NCBI RefSeq assembly: GCF_027532185.1
Contig: NZ_JAPZSV010000011.1
Span: 3,402 to 67,401 of the forward strand
Direction: 5' to 3'
Source of the DNA: Hylemonella sp.
GTDB taxonomy: Bacteria; Pseudomonadota; Gammaproteobacteria; Burkholderiales; Burkholderiaceae_C
DNA: 64,000 nucleotides
Shown here in pieces: positions 4,408-58,737 of the stretch. The stretch's first letter is position 1, and every line of letters starts with the position of its first letter. The notes beneath the pieces are model-generated. The model was not told the DNA's origin and ran no database searches. It worked only from the letters and a program-made list of their open reading frames with translations. A program made the position numbers and the translations under genes.

Positions 4408-4503
4408 CACCCCCAGGCTGCGCGCACTGCGTGTCGCTCCGCCACCCCCCTTGCCGGGGGCGGCACCAGCGGCCCGGCGAAGCCGGTTCCGCGGTGCCCC
4501 TGG
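4408..4503 (+). repeat. Structured intergenic repeat, copy A (forward orientation)
   Basis: Starts CACCCCCAGGC and ends CCCCTGG. It contains a C5-loop-G5 hairpin (4446-4460) and a long bulged hairpin (4462-4498). It aligns over its whole length with the reverse complements of 56312-56410 and 28758-28840. Confidence 0.8.
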
Positions 4504-25117: not shown

Positions 25118-25193
25118 GGGACGTTAGCTCAGTTGGTAGAGCAGCGGACTTTTAATCCGTTGGTCGCAGGTTCGAATCCTGCACGTCCTACCA
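25118..25193 (+). tRNA. tRNA-Lys (anticodon UUU)
   Basis: 76 nt. Acceptor stem GGGACGT/ACGTCCT, D-loop AGCTCAGTTGGTAGAGC, anticodon loop CTTTTAA, T-arm GGTTCGAATCC, encoded CCA. Confidence 0.95.
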
Positions 25194-25217
25194 AGTACAA
25201 TTCGAAGCACCGAATAT

Positions 25218-25293
25218 TCCTCGATAGCTCAGTCGGTAGAGCGCCGGACTGTTAATCCGTAGGTCCCTGGTTCGAGCCCAGGTCGAGGAGCCA
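25218..25293 (+). tRNA. tRNA-Asn (anticodon GUU)
   Basis: 76 nt. Acceptor stem TCCTCGA/TCGAGGA, anticodon loop CTGTTAA, T-arm GGTTCGAGCCC, encoded CCA. Confidence 0.95.
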
Positions 25294-25300
25294 AAACAAG

Positions 25301-25333
25301 AAGGCCTTGCAGCGATGCAAGGCCTTTTTTCTT
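25301..25333 (+). terminator. Rho-independent terminator of the tRNA operon
   Basis: Perfect 11-bp stem AAGGCCTTGCA / TGCAAGGCCTT with loop GCGA, followed by a T-run. Confidence 0.85.
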
Positions 25334-25354
25334 GTCTGCATGCCACGCGAGGCG

Positions 25355-25389
25355 CAAAGGAAAAGGGGTCTGATCTTGCGATAAGACCC
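25355..25389 (-). terminator. Rho-independent terminator of tRNA-Lys(CUU)
   Basis: The minus strand reads GGGTCT-TATCGCAAGATC-AGACCC followed by CTTTTCCTTTG. Confidence 0.6.
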
Positions 25390-25398
25390 ATTTTGATC

Positions 25399-25474
25399 TG
25401 GTGGGTCCTGTAGGATTCTAACCTACGACCTACGTATTAAGAGTCCGCTGCTCTACCAACTGAGCTAAGAACCC
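25399..25474 (-). tRNA. tRNA-Lys (anticodon CUU)
   Basis: The reverse complement reads GGGTTCTTAGCTCAGTTGGTAGAGCAGCGGACTCTTAATACG...GGTTAGAATCCTACAGGACCCACCA. 76 nt, encoded CCA. Confidence 0.93.
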
Positions 25475-28757: not shown

Positions 28758-28840
28758 GGCGAGCGCCGTGGAGCCGGCCTTGCCGGGCCACTGGCCTTGT
28801 CCCCTGGAGGGGAAGGCGGCGACAGCCGCCACAGGGGTGT
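28758..28840 (-). repeat. Structured intergenic repeat, copy B (forward on minus strand)
   Basis: GCCGTGGAGCCGGCCTTGCCGGGCCACTGGCCTTGTCCCCTG differs at only 3 of 41 nt from copy C. Ends ...CACAGGGGTGT. Abuts the prmB stop codon. Confidence 0.75.
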
Positions 28841-53276: not shown

Positions 53277-54167
53277 TCAAGCGGCCCAGGCGGCCATCAG
53301 ATCCTGTGCGGCCTGTTCCGGATCGTTCTGGGCGGTGATGGCGCGCACGACTGCCAGCGAACCCACGCCCGTGGCCTTGATCTCGGGTAGCTCGGCGGCC
53401 GAAATGCCGCCTATGCCCACGCCCGGGTAGTCACGCATCAGCCGTGTGTAGGCGGCCAGCCGACCCGGGCCCTGTGGTGCCGTGGCCATGCGCTTGAGCG
53501 TGGTGGGGTAGACGGCGCCCATGGCGATGTAGCTCGGGCTGAGCTGGTCGGCGCGCAGCATCTCGGCGTAGCCGTGGCTGGACAGGCCCAGGCGCAGGCC
53601 GGCAGCGCGGATGGCGGCGAAGTCGGCGACCTCCATGTCTTCCTGGCCCAGGTGCACACCGTAGGCGCCCGTGGCGATGGCTTCGCGCCAGTGGTCATTG
53701 ATGAAGAGCAGCGCGTCGGTGCCGCGCACAGCCTCCACCGCGGCCTGCACCTCGCGTCGCACAGCGTCAGCGTCTTCGGACTTGAAACGCAGCTGCAGCG
53801 TGGGCATGCCGGCGCGTGCCATGCGACCCACCCACTGGGCCGTGGGCAGGACGGCATAGACGCCCAGGCGTTTCGGGCAGGCGGGGAAAGCATCGGCGCG
53901 CGGCCAGGGTCGCAGGCCGAAGTCGACCGGTTCGTTGGGCCAGGCCAGCGGGTCGAACTGGCGCGTGCGGTTGGACTGGGCCAGCCAGGCGAGCGCCACA
54001 CACTCGGCATCGATGTCGATGAAGCCCAGGGCCAGGCAGGCCTGTTTCGCACTGCGGTAGACGGCGTCATCGCGGCTGTAGTTCAGCGCGGGCGTGCCCA
54101 CGACAGGGATCGCCTTGTCGGCGTGGGCTGCAACGATGGCGCGGGCGTCGGTGTTGAATTCGTACAT
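53277..54167 (-). CDS. thiE: Thiamine-phosphate synthase with a ~90-aa N-terminal extension
   Basis: The C-terminal ~200 aa are ThiE-like (LQLRFK..., INDHW, GVHLGQED, GLSSH, GPVYPT-like AMGAVYPTTLK, GIGGI). Last gene of the thiOSGE operon. Confidence 0.85.
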   Translation of the reverse strand: MYEFNTDARAIVAAHADKAIPVVGTPALNYSRDDAVYRSAKQACLALGFIDIDAECVALAWLAQSNRTRQFDPLAWPNEPVDFGLRPWPRADAFPACPKRLGVYAVLPTAQWVGRMARAGMPTLQLRFKSEDADAVRREVQAAVEAVRGTDALLFINDHWREAIATGAYGVHLGQEDMEVADFAAIRAAGLRLGLSSHGYAEMLRADQLSPSYIAMGAVYPTTLKRMATAPQGPGRLAAYTRLMRDYPGVGIGGISAAELPEIKATGVGSLAVVRAITAQNDPEQAAQDLMAAWAA

Positions 54168-54176
54168 CGTGATGTC

Positions 54177-54971
54177 TCAGGCGTGGTGCCAGAAAGGGGT
54201 ACCTAGAACCGGGGTCGAAGGCTGGGCGGCATCCTGCTCAGTCATCGCGCCCGACAGCCAGGCGGCACGGCCCGCCTGTGTGGCATCCGCAAAGGCACCG
54301 GCCATGGCCACGGGGTCCTGCGCCAGCGCGACCGCGGTGTTGAGCAGCACGGCGTCATAGCCCCATTCCATCACCGTGCAGGCGTGCGAAGGGCGGCCCA
54401 GGCCGGCGTCCACGATCAGCGGCACGTTCAGGCGCTCGCGCAGCATGCGCATGGCGTAGGGGTTGACGGGGCCCTTGCCGGTGCCGATGGGCGCCGCCCA
54501 GGGCATCACGGCCTGGCAGCCCACGTCGACCAGGCGCTGGCAGAGCACGAGGTCTTCGGTGCAGTAGGGTAGGACCTTGAAGCCGTCCTTGATGAGGCGG
54601 TCGGCGGTCTCGACGAGGTTGAGGGTGTCGGGCTGCAGGGTGTAGTCGTCGCCGATGAGTTCGAGCTTGATCCAGGGCGTCTCGAAGACCTCGCGCGCCA
54701 TCTGCGCCGTGGTGATGACCTCCTGCATGCTGTGGCAGCCCGCGGTGTTGGGCAGCACGGGCACGTTCAGCCTCTTGAGCAATTCCCAGAACTGGTTGCC
54801 GGCCTCGTGTGGGACGGCGCCCTGGCGGCGCAGCGAGGCCGTGAGCATGGCGGGCTTGGAGCGCTGCACCGCGGCTTCGAGCACGGCGGGCGAGGGATAG
54901 CGCGAGGTGCCCAGAAGCAGGCGGCTCTGGAAGGTCTCACCGTAGAGGATCAGGGGGTCTTGAGGGGTCAT
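54177..54971 (-). CDS. thiG: Thiazole synthase
   Basis: 264 aa with SRLLLGTSRYPS, IKLELIGDDYTLQPD and VMPWAAPIGTGKG blocks. Confidence 0.95.
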   Translation of the reverse strand: MTPQDPLILYGETFQSRLLLGTSRYPSPAVLEAAVQRSKPAMLTASLRRQGAVPHEAGNQFWELLKRLNVPVLPNTAGCHSMQEVITTAQMAREVFETPWIKLELIGDDYTLQPDTLNLVETADRLIKDGFKVLPYCTEDLVLCQRLVDVGCQAVMPWAAPIGTGKGPVNPYAMRMLRERLNVPLIVDAGLGRPSHACTVMEWGYDAVLLNTAVALAQDPVAMAGAFADATQAGRAAWLSGAMTEQDAAQPSTPVLGTPFWHHA

Positions 54972-54974
54972 GTT

Positions 54975-55172
54975 CTAGCCTCCCGTCACGGGAGAGATGA
55001 TTTCGATGCGGTCGCCTTCGTGCAGCGGGTGCTGTGCGTACTGCGTCTTGGGAACGAATTGCGTGTTCACGGCCGCGGCAAAAGGCGGCTTGGCCTCGAT
55101 GGCCGCCACGGCGTCTGCGACGGTGGCTCCCGCGGAGAGTTCGTGTTCGTGCTTGTTGATGATGACCTTCAT
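54975..55172 (-). CDS. thiS: Sulfur-carrier protein ThiS
   Basis: 65 aa ending in the ...ISPVTGG C-terminal Gly-Gly. The start overlaps the thiO stop (ATGA). Confidence 0.85.
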   Translation of the reverse strand: MKVIINKHEHELSAGATVADAVAAIEAKPPFAAAVNTQFVPKTQYAQHPLHEGDRIEIISPVTGG

Positions 55173-56275
55173 ACGGTGGCTTCTTCCACTTGCAGATCCA
55201 GGGTGCCGGCCAGCGTCGTGCGCTGTTCCTGCACCAGCTCCAGCACCACGTCGAGCAGGGCGGGCGAGATCATGAAGCCGTGGCGGTACAGGCCGTTGAT
55301 CTGCAGCGTGCGTGGGCCGAGCCGGCGGATGGCAGGCAGGTTGTCGGGCAGGGTGGGTCGGCACTGGGTCGCGATCTCGAGGATGCGGCCTTCCCCGAAA
55401 CCGGGATGCACGGCATAGGCGGCGCTCAGCAGCTCCAGCGTGGAGCGCACGCTGGGGGGGGAGAGGTCATTGCTCTCGATCTCGGTCGCACCGATCACAA
55501 AGAGGTGGTCCTGCTTGGGCGCGATGTAGATCGGGTAGCGCGGATGGATCAGACGCGTGGGCCGGCTCAGCGAGACGTCGGGCGCGTGGATGCGCGCCAC
55601 CTCGCCGCGCACGCCGCGCAGCTCGCCCCACTGGGCGGCAGCACCGATGCCGCGGCAGTCGAAAACCCAATCCGGTTGGTGGGGCTGGCCCGGTGCAAAG
55701 TCCTGCGGCCCGCGCGGGCTGTTCCAGAGCAGTTCGACCTTGAGCATCTGCAGCTCGTGCAGCAGCGCGGCCAGCAGCTGGCGGTTGTCCAGCTGCCCTT
55801 CGCCGGGCAGGTAAAGGCCCTGGGCAAATCGGTTCTCAAGCGAGGGCTCCAAGGCCCGCACGCCGGCGCCGTCCAGCGTCTGCAGATGCGGCAGGCCGGG
55901 CACGCGCTCCTGGTTGCTGCGCAACAGGCCGGCAAAGCGCTGGGCTTCAGCCGCGTCCTGGCGGTGCCAGAGGATGAGCGTACCTTCCTGCTGGAAGAAC
56001 ACCGGCTGGCTCAGCTGCGCCAGCAGTTGGGGCCAGCGAGTAAGTGCGTAATGCCCCATGCCGACCACGCTGGGCTCGGTGATGGCCGACTCGGCCAGCG
56101 GTGCCAGCATGGCGGCCGCCACGCGCGCGGGCGAGGTCTGCGCATCGGCCGTGCCGGCCTCGTAGACCGTGACGCGATGTCCCGCGCGTGCGAGCTGCCA
56201 GGCCAGCAGTCGGCCCATGAGGCCGGCGCCGAGCACGACGGACGCAGGAGAGGAGTTCATGGACAGTGAGTTCAT
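55169..56275 (-). CDS. thiO: FAD-dependent glycine oxidase
   Basis: VVLGAGLMGRLLAWQLARAGHRVTVYE dinucleotide-binding motif, in the position before thiS-thiG. The start is set at MNSLSMNSS (56275); an alternative start is at 56260. Confidence 0.82.
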   Translation of the reverse strand: MNSLSMNSSPASVVLGAGLMGRLLAWQLARAGHRVTVYEAGTADAQTSPARVAAAMLAPLAESAITEPSVVGMGHYALTRWPQLLAQLSQPVFFQQEGTLILWHRQDAAEAQRFAGLLRSNQERVPGLPHLQTLDGAGVRALEPSLENRFAQGLYLPGEGQLDNRQLLAALLHELQMLKVELLWNSPRGPQDFAPGQPHQPDWVFDCRGIGAAAQWGELRGVRGEVARIHAPDVSLSRPTRLIHPRYPIYIAPKQDHLFVIGATEIESNDLSPPSVRSTLELLSAAYAVHPGFGEGRILEIATQCRPTLPDNLPAIRRLGPRTLQINGLYRHGFMISPALLDVVLELVQEQRTTLAGTLDLQVEEATV

Positions 56276-56311
56276 ACGGCGTCGCCGCAAACGCGACGAG
56301 AGAAACAATAG

Positions 56312-56410
56312 GGCCAGGGAACGCCGTGGAACCGGCTTTGCCGGGCCACTGGCCTTGCCCCCTGCGAGGGGGGGGGCGCAGCGAACGAAGAGAGCGGAGC
56401 CTGGGGGTGT
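56312..56410 (-). repeat. Structured intergenic repeat, copy C (forward on minus strand)
   Basis: The reverse complement aligns end-to-end with copy A (ACACCCCCAGGCT ... C5-loop-G5 hairpin ... GGCC-A-GTGG-C-CCGG-CAAAG-CCGG-TT-CCAC-GGC ... CCCTGGCC). Confidence 0.8.
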
Positions 56411-56436
56411 TCGATAATCGCGCCAGGAGTACATCT

Positions 56437-57267
56437 ATGGCGACAGAAAAACATTACCCGCGCGTGCTGTCCATCGCGGGGTCCGACAGCGGCGGTGGCG
56501 CCGGCATCCAAGCCGATCTCAAGACCTTCAGCGCCCTTGGCTGCTACGGTATGACGGCGATCACGGCGCTCACCGCGCAGAACACGCAGGGCGTGCGCGG
56601 TATCCATGGTGTACCGCCCGAGTTTCTGGCCGCTCAGCTTGACGCGGTGCTTGAAGACATCGGCGCTGACGCCGTGAAGATCGGCATGCTGCACGCGCCC
56701 GACATCGTTCGGGTTGTGGCGCAGGCCATCCACAAACACAAGCTCAAGCACGTGGTGCTGGACCCCGTGATGGTGGCCACCAGCGGCGACCGCCTGATCG
56801 CCGAGGAGACGGTCTCGGTGCTGGTCAAGGAGCTTTTCCCGCTGGCCACCGTGATCACCCCCAACCTCGACGAGGCTGAGCTGCTGCTGGGCCACACGAT
56901 CGCCGGCATCCCCGCGCTGGAGGGCGCCGCACGCGAATTGCAGGCCCTGGGTGCACAGGGCGTGCTGCTCAAGGGCGGGCATCTCAAGGGCGACGAGGTG
57001 GTCGACCTGCTGCTGCAGGGCCACCGTGCGCCGCTGCGCCTGGCCTCGCCACGCATTGCGAGCGAGAACGTGCACGGCACGGGCTGCACCCTGTCCTCGG
57101 CCATCGCGGCGCAGCTGGCCCTGGGCCACGGGCTGGAGGACGCCGTGCGCCTGGCGCGCGCCTACATCCTGGGCGCGATCGCTGCGGGCGCGGACGTGCG
57201 CACCGGGCGCGGCCATGGCCCGCTCAACCACGGGCACGCGCCGGTGGCCATGCAGCTGCTGGGCTGA
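56437..57267 (+). CDS. thiD: Hydroxymethylpyrimidine / phosphomethylpyrimidine kinase
   Basis: VLSIAGSDSGGGAGIQADLKTF..., VLDPVMVATSGDRL and HGTGCTLSSAIAA motifs. 276 aa from the ATG at 56437. Confidence 0.92.
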   Translation: MATEKHYPRVLSIAGSDSGGGAGIQADLKTFSALGCYGMTAITALTAQNTQGVRGIHGVPPEFLAAQLDAVLEDIGADAVKIGMLHAPDIVRVVAQAIHKHKLKHVVLDPVMVATSGDRLIAEETVSVLVKELFPLATVITPNLDEAELLLGHTIAGIPALEGAARELQALGAQGVLLKGGHLKGDEVVDLLLQGHRAPLRLASPRIASENVHGTGCTLSSAIAAQLALGHGLEDAVRLARAYILGAIAAGADVRTGRGHGPLNHGHAPVAMQLLG

Positions 57268-57332
57268 CACAGACTCGCCTTCCATCTCGTATGCACTCAG
57301 TCGGGGGAGGGGCCATGACCGGGGGTGGTCAT

Positions 57333-57428
57333 CTGGCCGGCTTCCCTGCGTGAGCATTACCTCCATCAGGTTCAAAGGGACTTTCTCAGTCGACGCGGCA
57401 CGGGCCGCGACAACACCCCTAGCGGATG
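57333..57428 (-). promoter_or_regulatory. TPP (THI-box) riboswitch aptamer
   Basis: The minus strand reads CUAGGGGUGUUGUCGCGGCCCGUGCCGCGUCGACUGAGAAAGUCCCUUUGAACCUGAUGGAGGUAAUGCUCACGCAGGGAAGCC. It contains GGGGUG, a 6-bp P3 hairpin, CUGAGA, CCCUUUGAACCUGAU, GGUAAUGC and GCAGGGAA in canonical order and spacing. Confidence 0.85.
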
Positions 57429-57477
57429 CGCTCTGACAGAGCAGGGCGCAGGACTGCATTTTAGTCCTGCACCCGCC

Positions 57478-57503
57478 AAGAAAAAGCCCGCCGGGTGGGC
57501 GGG
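57478..57503 (-). terminator. Rho-independent terminator downstream of the ferredoxin-NADP reductase gene
   Basis: The minus strand reads GCCCGCC-ACCC-GGCGGGC followed by TTTTTCTT. Confidence 0.7.
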
Positions 57504-57540
57504 CTGGATCTGATTTCGGGATTCTTGACCCGGGGCAAGA

Positions 57541-57625
57541 GGCTGCCACGCTCGGCACTTCGTGTTCTCGCTGCCCCCCGAGGGGGCGCTCGCCGGCTTG
57601 GGGCGGCCCTGCGCCTGCTCGGCTC
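57541..57625 (+). repeat. Structured intergenic repeat, partial/degenerate copy D (forward on plus strand)
   Basis: AGGCTGCCACGCTCGGCACTTCGTGTTCTCGCTGCCCCCCGAGGGGGCG matches the 5' half of copies A and C, including the C5-loop-G5 hairpin. The 3' half is degenerate. Confidence 0.45.
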
Positions 57626-57633
57626 GGCTCGGC

Positions 57634-58737
57634 TCAGTCGAAAACCGGCGTCTCCACGCCCAGCACCTTGTGCAGCTTGGGGCTGGTGGTGGTGTACTGC
57701 AGGTGGATCTTGCCCTTGTCCGGGAAGATGATGGGCGCGGCGCCAAAAGCAGCCAGCGCGCATTCGTGGAAACCCGAGAGGATGAGCTTCTTCTTGCCCG
57801 GGTAGGTGTTGATGTCACCCACGGCGAAGATGCCAGGCACATTGGTGGAGAACTTCTCGGTGTCCACCACGAGCTGCTTGCGTTCGATGTCCAGGCCCCA
57901 GTCGGCGATGGGACCGAGCTTGGGCGAGAGGCCGAAGAAGACCAGCAGGGTGTCCAGCGGCACCACGCGGGTCACGCCGTCACCGCCGGTGACCTTGACG
58001 CCCGTGAGCTTGCCGTCCTTTTCCTCGATGGCCGTGATCTGGCCCACCATGAACTGCATCTCGTAGGCGTCGCAGAGCTCCTTCATCTTGGCCACGCTGG
58101 CGGGGGCGGCCTTGAAGCCGTCGCGACGGTGCACCAGGATCACGCTCTCGGCCTTGTTCGGGCCTTCGTTGGTGAAGTTCAGCGTCCAGTCCAGGGCAGA
58201 GTCGCCGCCGCCCACGATGACGAGGTTCTTGCCGGCGAAATCAGCCGGGTTCTTGACGCGGTAGAAGAGCTGGGAGCCCTCATACTTGTCCAGACCGTCG
58301 ACCTTGAGCGTGCGCGGCTCGAAGGCGCCCACACCGGCGGCGATGAAGATGGTCTTGGTCAGGAAGCGCGTGCCCTTGGAGGTCTCGACGTAGAAGCGGC
58401 CGTCGTCCTGCTTCTGCACCGCGGTGACCGTCTGGCCCAGATGGAAGGTCGCGCCGAAGGGCTCGATCTGCTTGAGCAGCGCGTCGGTCAGCTCCTTGCC
58501 TGTGCACACCGGGATGGCCGGGATGTCATAGATGGGCTTGTCGGGATAGAGCTCGATGGGCTGGCCGCCCGGATAGGCGAGCGAGTCGATCACATGGGCC
58601 TTGATTTCGAGCAGGCCGAGCTCGAAGACCTGGAACAGGCCCACAGGGCCGGCGCCGATGATGACGGCATCTGTTTCGATCGGGCCTTCGTGGGCCTGGG
58701 CGGTCTGGATCACGGCGGGACTGAGTTTGGGTTCCAT
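57634..58737 (-). CDS. Ferredoxin--NADP+ reductase, thioredoxin-reductase-like type
   Basis: 367 aa with [16 protein letters not shown] motif, a [14 protein letters not shown] motif and the IYDIPAIP block typical of TrxR-like FNRs. Confidence 0.85.

Follow-up and report, generated by a model that had tools for sequence, protein, structure and literature searches.

A 64-kb window of a Hylemonella sp. contig (64,000 nt, 66% GC; the window here means the whole stretch of DNA analysed) carries the thiamine genes thiD and thiOSGE on opposite strands, together with a thiamine pyrophosphate (TPP) riboswitch in an odd position. The riboswitch lies on the minus strand beyond the 3' end of thiD and points into it, and the minus strand of thiD holds an open reading frame (ORF), referred to below as the bridge ORF, that runs up to the start of thiO. 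The features of the locus, in order of coordinate, are as follows.

53277-56275, minus strand: thiO-thiS-thiG-thiE (Pfam DAO, ThiS, ThiG and TMP-TENI)
56276-56436, no strand: divergent thiO/thiD spacer of 161 nt, with a repeat resembling repetitive extragenic palindromic (REP) elements at about 56318-56416
56437-57267, plus strand: thiD, hydroxymethylpyrimidine/phosphomethylpyrimidine kinase (Pfam PF08543 Phos_pyr_kin, E=1.8e-94)
56272-57285, minus strand: antisense 'bridge' ORF of 337 codons plus stop, codon-aligned with thiD (from ORF boundaries and codon counts)
57303-57338, minus strand: putative expression platform, a hairpin GGCCAGAUGACC/GGUCAUGGCC followed by a C-rich box, GGCC-CCUCCCCC (RNAalifold and single-sequence folds)
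57326-57430, minus strand: TPP riboswitch aptamer, or THI element (RF00059; own covariance model; aligns with cytX-linked aptamers)
57458-57463, minus strand: -10-like box TAAAAT of the putative riboswitch promoter, read in the sequence, with no good -35
57485-57505, minus strand: predicted intrinsic terminator of the FNR/thioredoxin-reductase-like gene, an 8-bp GC-rich stem followed by TTTTTCTT
57634-58737, minus strand: FNR/thioredoxin-reductase-like gene, upstream of the aptamer

The aptamer matches the Rfam TPP family over the full model (positions 1-105 of 105) at 58.0 bits (E=9e-9; gathering threshold 54.3 bits), and it reaches 106 bits with a covariance model of our own, built from the first TPP matches in relatives. 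Its sensor helices and cores are present, namely P2-P3 with CUGAGA and P4-P5 with ACCUGAU...GGUAAU...GCAGGGAA, and 15 of its 23 pairs show compensatory changes in the alignment analysed with RNAalifold. The Rfam scan found no other riboswitch in the window. An earlier note on this DNA, made from the letters alone, had described a complete THI-box convergent with thiD, with thiO (start 56275) as the next minus-strand gene and a thiO/thiD spacer that holds a repeat element in place of a THI-box. The full-length Rfam match, the Pfam assignment of thiD and the gene coordinates bear this out, and neither Rfam nor our own covariance model detects a TPP aptamer in the spacer, including a second or degenerate one. 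The aptamer does not lie directly upstream of a thiamine gene: between it and thiO, the first annotated gene that follows on its strand, lie 1.05 kb that include antisense thiD. This bears on the location of the aptamer and not on its identity.

On the upstream side, the TAAAAT box and its lack of a good -35 are as the same note had put them, and a consensus promoter scan does not call the box because the -35 is absent. Past the aptamer, neither a consensus sigma-70 promoter nor an intrinsic terminator was found. The stable hairpin at 57338-57311 has no U-tract, again as described earlier. The one terminator-like site detected is the predicted terminator of the FNR-like gene, which would insulate the putative riboswitch promoter from upstream transcription. 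Flanking the -10 box is a 7-bp inverted repeat, GCAGGAC...GTCCTGC (57448-57470, minus strand), that is imperfect in locus L002 and does not occur in other relatives; it may be an operator or a chance match.

Since the DNA is GC-rich, ORFs stay open on both strands, and the annotation of thiD itself had to be weighed against the frame opposite to it. The possibility that the minus-strand ORF is the real gene and thiD (likely start ATG 56437, stop 57265-57267) an artefact was rejected. While thiD combines its strong Pfam match with a normal GC content at third codon positions, the antisense ORF has neither: no Pfam match was obtained for it, and its codon-position GC mirrors that of thiD.

The origin of the arrangement becomes clear from comparison with 80 genome loci and 80 metagenome loci that encode close ThiD relatives, in which aptamers were mapped with Rfam and our own covariance model and genes with tblastn. 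The window itself comes from a Curvibacter/Hylemonella-like member of the Comamonadaceae. A recurrent layout (L004, L010, L016, L018, L031, L034) reads thiE-G-S-O on the minus strand, thiD on the plus strand, and then cytX, the TPP aptamer and the FNR-like gene, all on the minus strand. The gene between aptamer and thiD encodes an NCS1 permease (TIGR02358, 'putative hydroxymethylpyrimidine transporter CytX', E ~1e-70). The window and 12 other loci (L002, L003, L005, L006, L008, L055, L081-L086) have matching flanks, including the syntenic FNR-like gene, and lack cytX; no cytX was found elsewhere in the 64-kb window. In these orphan loci 57-97 nt separate the aptamer from the stop codon of thiD (the window has about 60 nt up to the 3' end of thiD), and the aptamer aligns as an orthologue of the cytX-linked aptamers. 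The window riboswitch is therefore the former leader of cytX, which was deleted in the window's lineage. The order TPP, with or without cytX, then opposite-strand thiD, then thiOSGE is shared by the window and more than 20 relatives, and in L028 and L036 cytX lies directly upstream of thiOSGE without interruption. As reconstructed from these loci, the ancestral layout is FNR-like gene, TPP riboswitch, cytX, thiD on the opposite strand, and thiOSGE.

Loss of cytX appears to have occurred more than once. In a bootstrapped neighbor-joining tree of ThiO, ThiD and FNR, the only tree method used, the cytX-bearing locus L004, of Curvibacter sp. AEP1-3, nests within the orphan group, joining the clades of the window and of L005 (the orphan-type Curvibacter delicatus NBRC 14919) to the exclusion of L008 in 200 of 200 replicates. 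It groups with the window clade in 173 of 200, and the orphans are monophyletic without it in at most one of 200. From this position of L004 it follows that cytX was probably removed two or three times, or that a deletion allele spread by recombination. Each loss spared the -10 box of the promoter, the aptamer and the switching helix of the platform.

The neighbourhood of cytX varies further among the relatives. A Polaromonas-like locus (L037, 1134-2442) has cytX beside thiD and about 76 nt from the FNR-like gene, with no TPP aptamer detected, and appears to represent the converse loss, in which the transporter was kept and the riboswitch is gone. Two loci (L012, 4822-6316; L094, 2608-4118) have a different permease between the TPP aptamer and thiD, with a weak Pfam SSF match in L012, which suggests that the transporter was swapped behind one riboswitch. 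Polaromonas-type loci (L017, L023, L024, L027, L029, L030, L096, L097, L100, L102, L107) share a conserved convergent overlap of 17 nt in which cytX and thiD meet tail to tail; in these loci thiOSGE is not upstream of thiD, and a thiE-like gene is found there. In L020 (2806-3521, minus strand) a module of a HigB-like toxin (Gp49/DUF891) and an HTH_37 antitoxin replaces the TPP-cytX unit between the FNR-like gene and thiD, and the TAG of the antitoxin overlaps a GTG of the antisense-thiD frame, which is still open (TAGTG).

The leader elements around the aptamer are also shared. Every relative with an orphan or a cytX-linked aptamer has a TAnAAT box 15-40 nt upstream of it. The C-rich box of the platform is able to pair with the aptamer's GGGAAGC-GGCC, forming a switching, or anti-aptamer, helix that is mutually exclusive with the closed aptamer. 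RNAalifold finds nine conserved pairs in six orphan platforms, one of them with a G-C to A-U double change, and a matching CCCTGCC box lies upstream of the Shine-Dalgarno (SD) sequence of cytX in cytX-bearing relatives. Among the leader folds, only the anti-aptamer helix is conserved.

Evidence for continued selection comes from the orphan copies themselves. The 13 orphan aptamers agree at 57 positions, among them all of the ligand-binding cores, and variation is confined to P3, where sequences differ with pairing kept, and to a U-A/C-G exchange in P5. Within all-orphan clades the aptamer core is 92-100% identical, compared with 57-78% for fourfold-degenerate sites of neighbouring genes and 39-94% for intergenic flanks. 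Orphan aptamers score 56-62.7 bits with Rfam, on a par with the 55-62.8 bits of cytX-linked ones. The gap between core and neutral sites, together with the conserved platform and TAnAAT box, shows that the riboswitch is under purifying selection while orphaned. The origin of its odd position through loss of cytX is ordinary and its retention is not. Among the findings that would refute its proposal, the earlier note had listed a conventional downstream gene simply lost here; such a gene was indeed lost, and function is not refuted by it because the orphaned element is still conserved.

The frame opposite thiD gave an unexpected result. The minus-strand frame that is codon-aligned with thiD gains stops only at thiD TTA, CTA or TCA codons, and the number expected was computed per locus from the frequency of these codons in neighbouring genes. 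In a first analysis, whose groups were formed after part of the data had been seen and which was then repeated on the metagenome loci, the first 15 loci in which thiO adjoins thiD and the spacer has no riboswitch had 0 antisense stops against 22.7 expected, and other layouts had 25 against 22.2. On repetition, six new orphans and L099 had 0 stops against 4.7 expected. Three loci, L087, L089 and L109 (1, 3 and 8 stops), broke the simple rule that adjacency of thiO and thiD, with no riboswitch in the spacer, implies an open frame; they have longer spacers and no TPP/cytX unit converging on thiD. The claim was therefore narrowed to loci with a converging TPP unit. Class 1 (16 loci) combines a TPP unit converging on thiD, whether or not it includes cytX, with a thiOSGE immediately past thiD that lacks a riboswitch; in class 2 (19 loci) a TPP unit converges and thiOSGE has its own riboswitch or lies elsewhere. 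The thiD genes of class 1 contain no TTA, CTA or TCA codon against 14.6 expected (Poisson P=4.4e-7), and those of class 2 contain 18 against 19.0. The control codons CTT, TCT and AGT number 41 against 36.6 expected in class 1 and 41 against 48.3 in class 2. With the control codons at normal levels, it is antisense stops in particular that class 1 lacks, and a general codon bias does not account for the depletion.

The protein that the frame would encode shows a different picture. Each fourfold site of thiD falls on a first codon position of the antisense ORF, and in 14 class-1 pairs the identity of these sites is about the same as in thiO, thiG, thiE and FNR. The antisense protein is therefore not under detectable selection: beyond the selection on thiD, none was detected at the fourfold sites of these 14 pairs. 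Translatability in the sense of stop avoidance, and not protein sequence, appears to be what is selected.

Both ends of the bridge ORF are fitted to the neighbouring genes. In the window it runs from an ATG at 57285 to a TGA at 56274-56272 that overlaps the thiO ATG at 56275 (ATGA), an overlap of the 1- or 4-nt kind by which a coupled upstream ORF is recognised. Of the first 15 loci, 14 have the bridge stop overlapping the thiO ATG or no more than 3 nt from it, as do 6 of 7 loci added later, and the junctions (ATGA, TGA-ATG, TGA-N-ATG, TGA-NNN-ATG, ATGGCTAA) use all three registers. No SD match was found for thiO, whose duplex with the anti-SD is worth -2.1 kcal/mol compared with -5.6 for cytX, -6.9 for thiD and -10.3 for thiG; this fits a putative initiation by termination-reinitiation. 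At the other end, the cytX TGA overlaps an in-frame bridge start (TGATG, TTGA, GTGA, ATGA) in four of the five cytX-bearing class-1 loci and in none of the 19 class-2 loci, which instead have a hairpin gap (L018, L034, L088) or the tail-to-tail overlap of cytX and thiD. L018 and L034, with their own thiO riboswitch and the hairpin gap after cytX, also have antisense stops. In most orphans, including the window, an in-frame ATG precedes the reverse complement of the thiD stop by exactly 15 nt; this ATG could be the old start codon of cytX or that of the bridge ORF. The identical junction of ATG and 15 nt in two clades could reflect common descent, allele transfer or selection for frame.

The space between thiO and thiD is likewise informative. 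Where relatives have neither a riboswitch nor an insert in the spacer, about 12-66 nt separate the start codons of thiO and thiD. Upstream of thiD most relatives have a conserved GATAAT box (..CTGATAATTTTCGCCATG..), with about 7 nt between it and the ATG, which suggests a leaderless or short-leader thiD mRNA. With the short spacer partly filled by the -10 of thiD, little room is left for a thiO promoter, and transcription of thiOSGE should start inside or beyond thiD. The corresponding box of the window is at 56413-56418, upstream of thiD; in the window and L002, by contrast, thiD has a leader of 15-19 nt with an AGGAG SD.

The arrangement of a noncontiguous operon, in which a gene on the opposite strand interrupts the operon, is present in the window. 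We propose that the thiOSGE genes are still governed by the riboswitch, which would serve as their 5' leader and act by way of an antisense ORF translated across thiD, and assign this reading a probability of about 0.58. In essence it is the second of three explanations offered by the earlier note, a very long leader reading through antisense thiD into thiOSGE, which the comparative evidence favours; the present analysis would add that this leader is what remains of a TPP-cytX unit after deletion of cytX and that the antisense stretch is kept as an ORF coupled to thiO. The ancestral operon would have comprised a promoter, the TPP aptamer, cytX and, beyond the opposite-strand thiD, thiO-thiS-thiG-thiE. 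When TPP is low, transcription from the TAAAAT promoter would pass the platform and cross thiD in antisense, and ribosomes would translate the stop-free, codon-aligned ORF (57285-56272), the product of which is probably irrelevant. Translation of the bridge would shield the stretch of about 1 kb from Rho-dependent polarity and hand the ribosomes to thiO by reinitiation at the ATGA overlap. When TPP is high, the closed aptamer would free the C-rich box, bridge translation or elongation or both would fail, and thiOSGE would be off. A single transcript spanning thiD is indicated indirectly by the absence of a terminator after the aptamer, the tiny spacers and the maintained bridge ORF. Alongside the computed results, which are the aptamer identity, the cytX-leader orthology, the loss of cytX, the selection on orphan aptamers, the depletion of antisense stops and the junction overlaps, we infer a transcript that reaches thiO, translation of the bridge, a role for Rho and a step blocked by TPP. 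For the specific proposal that the antisense strand of thiD is kept stop-free as a bridge whose product is irrelevant, extending translation and Rho protection as far as thiOSGE from a start under riboswitch control or from cytX, the odds seem about even.

Several observations weigh against this interpretation. Adjacency of thiO and thiD did not by itself predict an open frame in the three new metagenome loci L087, L089 and L109, and the comparison of class 1 with class 2 uses classes refined after the data had been seen. The statistics treat loci as independent, with synonymous sites near saturation between diverged loci and not so between close relatives. Very GC-rich genes often have no stops in the codon-aligned antisense frame in any case; with just 0.8 stops expected in the window, it is the clade that provides the signal and not the window by itself. 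In L009, L020 and L047 the frame is open with no riboswitch upstream, which ties the bridge to transcription entering from beyond thiD and not to TPP as such. The open frame through the REP insert of the window is uninformative, there being no stops in any of the three frames (P ~0.35), and that through the insert of L006 adds little (P ~0.13). No exact stop/start junction is present in L007 and L083. The ATG of the orphan bridge ORFs has no SD match, and single-sequence folds of the leader give no consistent picture of start-codon sequestration in the ligand-bound state. Finally, a thiO promoter may be hidden inside thiD.

Among the alternatives, the one that survives best is that the riboswitch gates an antisense RNA mainly regulating thiD, by interference or by RNase III cleavage of the duplex, with thiOSGE expressed independently. 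The earlier note had listed this first, and its geometry holds: aptamer and promoter point into thiD with no terminator between, any transcript past the platform would be fully complementary to thiD mRNA, and both riboswitch-dependent antisense RNAs and cross-regulation within noncontiguous operons are documented (PMC7154746). Specific support was not obtained, and the idea leaves unexplained the clearing of stops from the antisense frame, the ending of the ORF on the thiO ATG and its beginning on the cytX stop, and the loss of these features in loci where thiO has its own riboswitch. A TPP OFF-switch would moreover lower thiD when TPP is scarce, and thiD is constitutive in Neisseria (PMC7237195). 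Regulation of thiD as the main role is therefore judged unlikely; an antisense effect on thiD may well arise as a by-product of the long leader favoured here, because that leader must cross thiD and so overlaps its mRNA.

It is also rather improbable that the riboswitch controls only a short TPP-responsive leader, either as a by-product retained through selection on another feature, such as insulating or terminating thiD or the FNR-like gene, or as a trans-acting RNA, while thiOSGE is transcribed from an unrecognised promoter inside thiD. Such a leader would fit the stable hairpin after the aptamer, the failure of the consensus scan to recognise a promoter anywhere, which makes hidden ones possible, and the loci in which thiOSGE lies beside thiD without a converging TPP unit (L087, L089, L109, L047). 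That hairpin, however, lacks a U-tract, and neither the stop clearing along the whole of thiD, including its 3' end, nor the overlaps between the cytX stop and the antisense start would be accounted for.

Doubtful to a greater degree is a functional overlapping gene, in which the antisense ORF would encode a TPP-controlled protein of about 337 amino acids translationally coupled to thiO. The long ORF is kept across diverged lineages with start/stop coupling on both sides, and antisense overlapping genes are reported from bacteria (PMC7103648 and PMC9927249, for example). Its product belongs to no Pfam family, though, the fourfold sites of thiD diverge as fast as those of its neighbours, and even close relatives differ freely in the N-terminus of the ORF and in its course across the spacer and REP insert. 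That the element is a functionless, decaying relic of the cytX leader, the third explanation of the earlier note, has in its favour that the gene formerly behind it is gone and is rejected as scarcely credible, given the purifying selection seen in the core, neutral-site and flank identities, the invariant ligand-binding cores and stem pairing kept through sequence change in 13 copies, the undiminished Rfam scores, the sparing of the riboswitch at each repeated cytX loss, and a within-clade divergence that argues against a very recent orphan state.

The proposed long leader has partial counterparts among known systems. In Neisseria meningitidis, TPP-cytX-thiO-thiE is described as one operon for which a translational or Rho mechanism is proposed (PMC7237195). 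The present locus resembles that operon, as well as L028 and L036, in its aptamer class and in the succession of cytX and genes for thiazole and thiamine-phosphate synthesis; it also shares the lack of an intrinsic terminator and the type of OFF mechanism proposed. It differs in having lost cytX and in having the oppositely oriented thiD between riboswitch and thiO, so that the leader would have an antisense crossing of about 1 kb. Translational control by riboswitches is reported to be linked to Rho in E. coli (PMC5499598). For the crossing itself, the noncontiguous operon menE-menC-MW1733-ytkD-MW1731 of Staphylococcus aureus offers a precedent (Saenz-Lahoya et al. 2019 PNAS; reviewed in PMC7154746), with related genes on one strand interrupted by an opposite gene that the transcript overlaps entirely, as it would here. 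In the noncontiguous operons described, the stretch opposite the embedded gene is an 'internal untranslated region' (PMC7154746). Here, in contrast, that stretch is stop-free and joined to its neighbours by stop/start overlaps, and the unit as a whole would be riboswitch-gated.

Riboswitch-regulated antisense RNAs reportedly include AspocR, under a B12 riboswitch in Listeria, and the S-box antisense RNA of the ubiG operon in Clostridium acetobutylicum. The geometry of those cases, a riboswitch opposite a gene of the same pathway whose ligand-dependent read-through gives antisense RNA, is also present here. Their antisense RNAs are non-coding and the overlapped gene is the target, whereas in the present locus a maintained ORF leads into biosynthetic genes and the sign for thiD would be counter-intuitive. 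An open frame seemingly coupled to thiO argues against a purely non-coding antisense RNA.

Junctions similar to those of the bridge ORF are known from Mycobacterium tuberculosis, where 1- or 4-nt stop/start overlaps of upstream ORFs are linked to termination-reinitiation and to suppressed Rho termination (10.1101/2022.06.01.494293). In both systems ATGA or TGATG overlaps join an upstream frame to the regulated gene, and translation is proposed to prevent Rho termination. Unlike those short leader peptides, the frame here has 337 codons and is the exact antisense of a functional gene. A long, fully embedded antisense ORF in a codon-aligned frame recalls pop, antisense to ompA in enterohaemorrhagic E. 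coli (PMC7103648). In the present case, by contrast, no selection is seen on the encoded protein, and it is translatability that appears selected. The literature searched contained no TPP antisense precedent, no translated antisense bridge and no usable Curvibacter transcriptomes. The combination proposed would unite a TPP riboswitch, a noncontiguous operon and termination-reinitiation coupling, each of them known, with the translated antisense bridge as the new element.

Should the proposal be correct, a riboswitch can outlive its own gene and be reused as the remote controller of an operon beyond an opposite gene, and regulon predictions limited to the next downstream gene would miss such control. 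Translating the antisense stretch would be a previously undescribed way of holding a noncontiguous operon together and the answer of such operons to Rho polarity in Gram-negative bacteria. The synonymous codons of one gene would be under a new kind of selective constraint, imposed by translation of the opposite strand with no second protein encoded, leaving a signature that could be searched for genome-wide: loss of TTA, CTA and TCA from an embedded gene combined with ATGA-type junctions.

Within thiOSGE, the thiO stop and thiS start overlap as ATGA (55169-55172) and thiS is separated from thiG by 3 nt (54971-54977), which indicates that translation of thiOSG is tightly coupled.

The thiO/thiD spacer of the window is long because of its REP-like insertion. 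This GC-rich dispersed repeat, resembling REP elements or miniature inverted-repeat transposable elements (GGAACGCCGTGGAACCGGC...GCCCCCTGCGAGGGGGG...), is found at 56318-56416, 28764-28806, 4408-4490 and about 57560-57620 of the window, the last copy lying between the stop codon and the terminator of the FNR-like gene. A related copy occupies the thiO/thiD spacer of L006 and L083 and is absent from their close relatives L005 and L085; this distribution suggests that the spacer insertion is recent and polymorphic. An inversion through inverted REP-like copies flanking thiD and the riboswitch was considered as the source of their orientation and rejected, since a joint inversion would leave both convergent and the repeat is polymorphic and absent from the closest relatives. 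Elsewhere in the window, the Rfam tRNA model matches three genes at 25118-25474 with 65-78 bits; two of them are on the plus strand and the third is on the minus strand.

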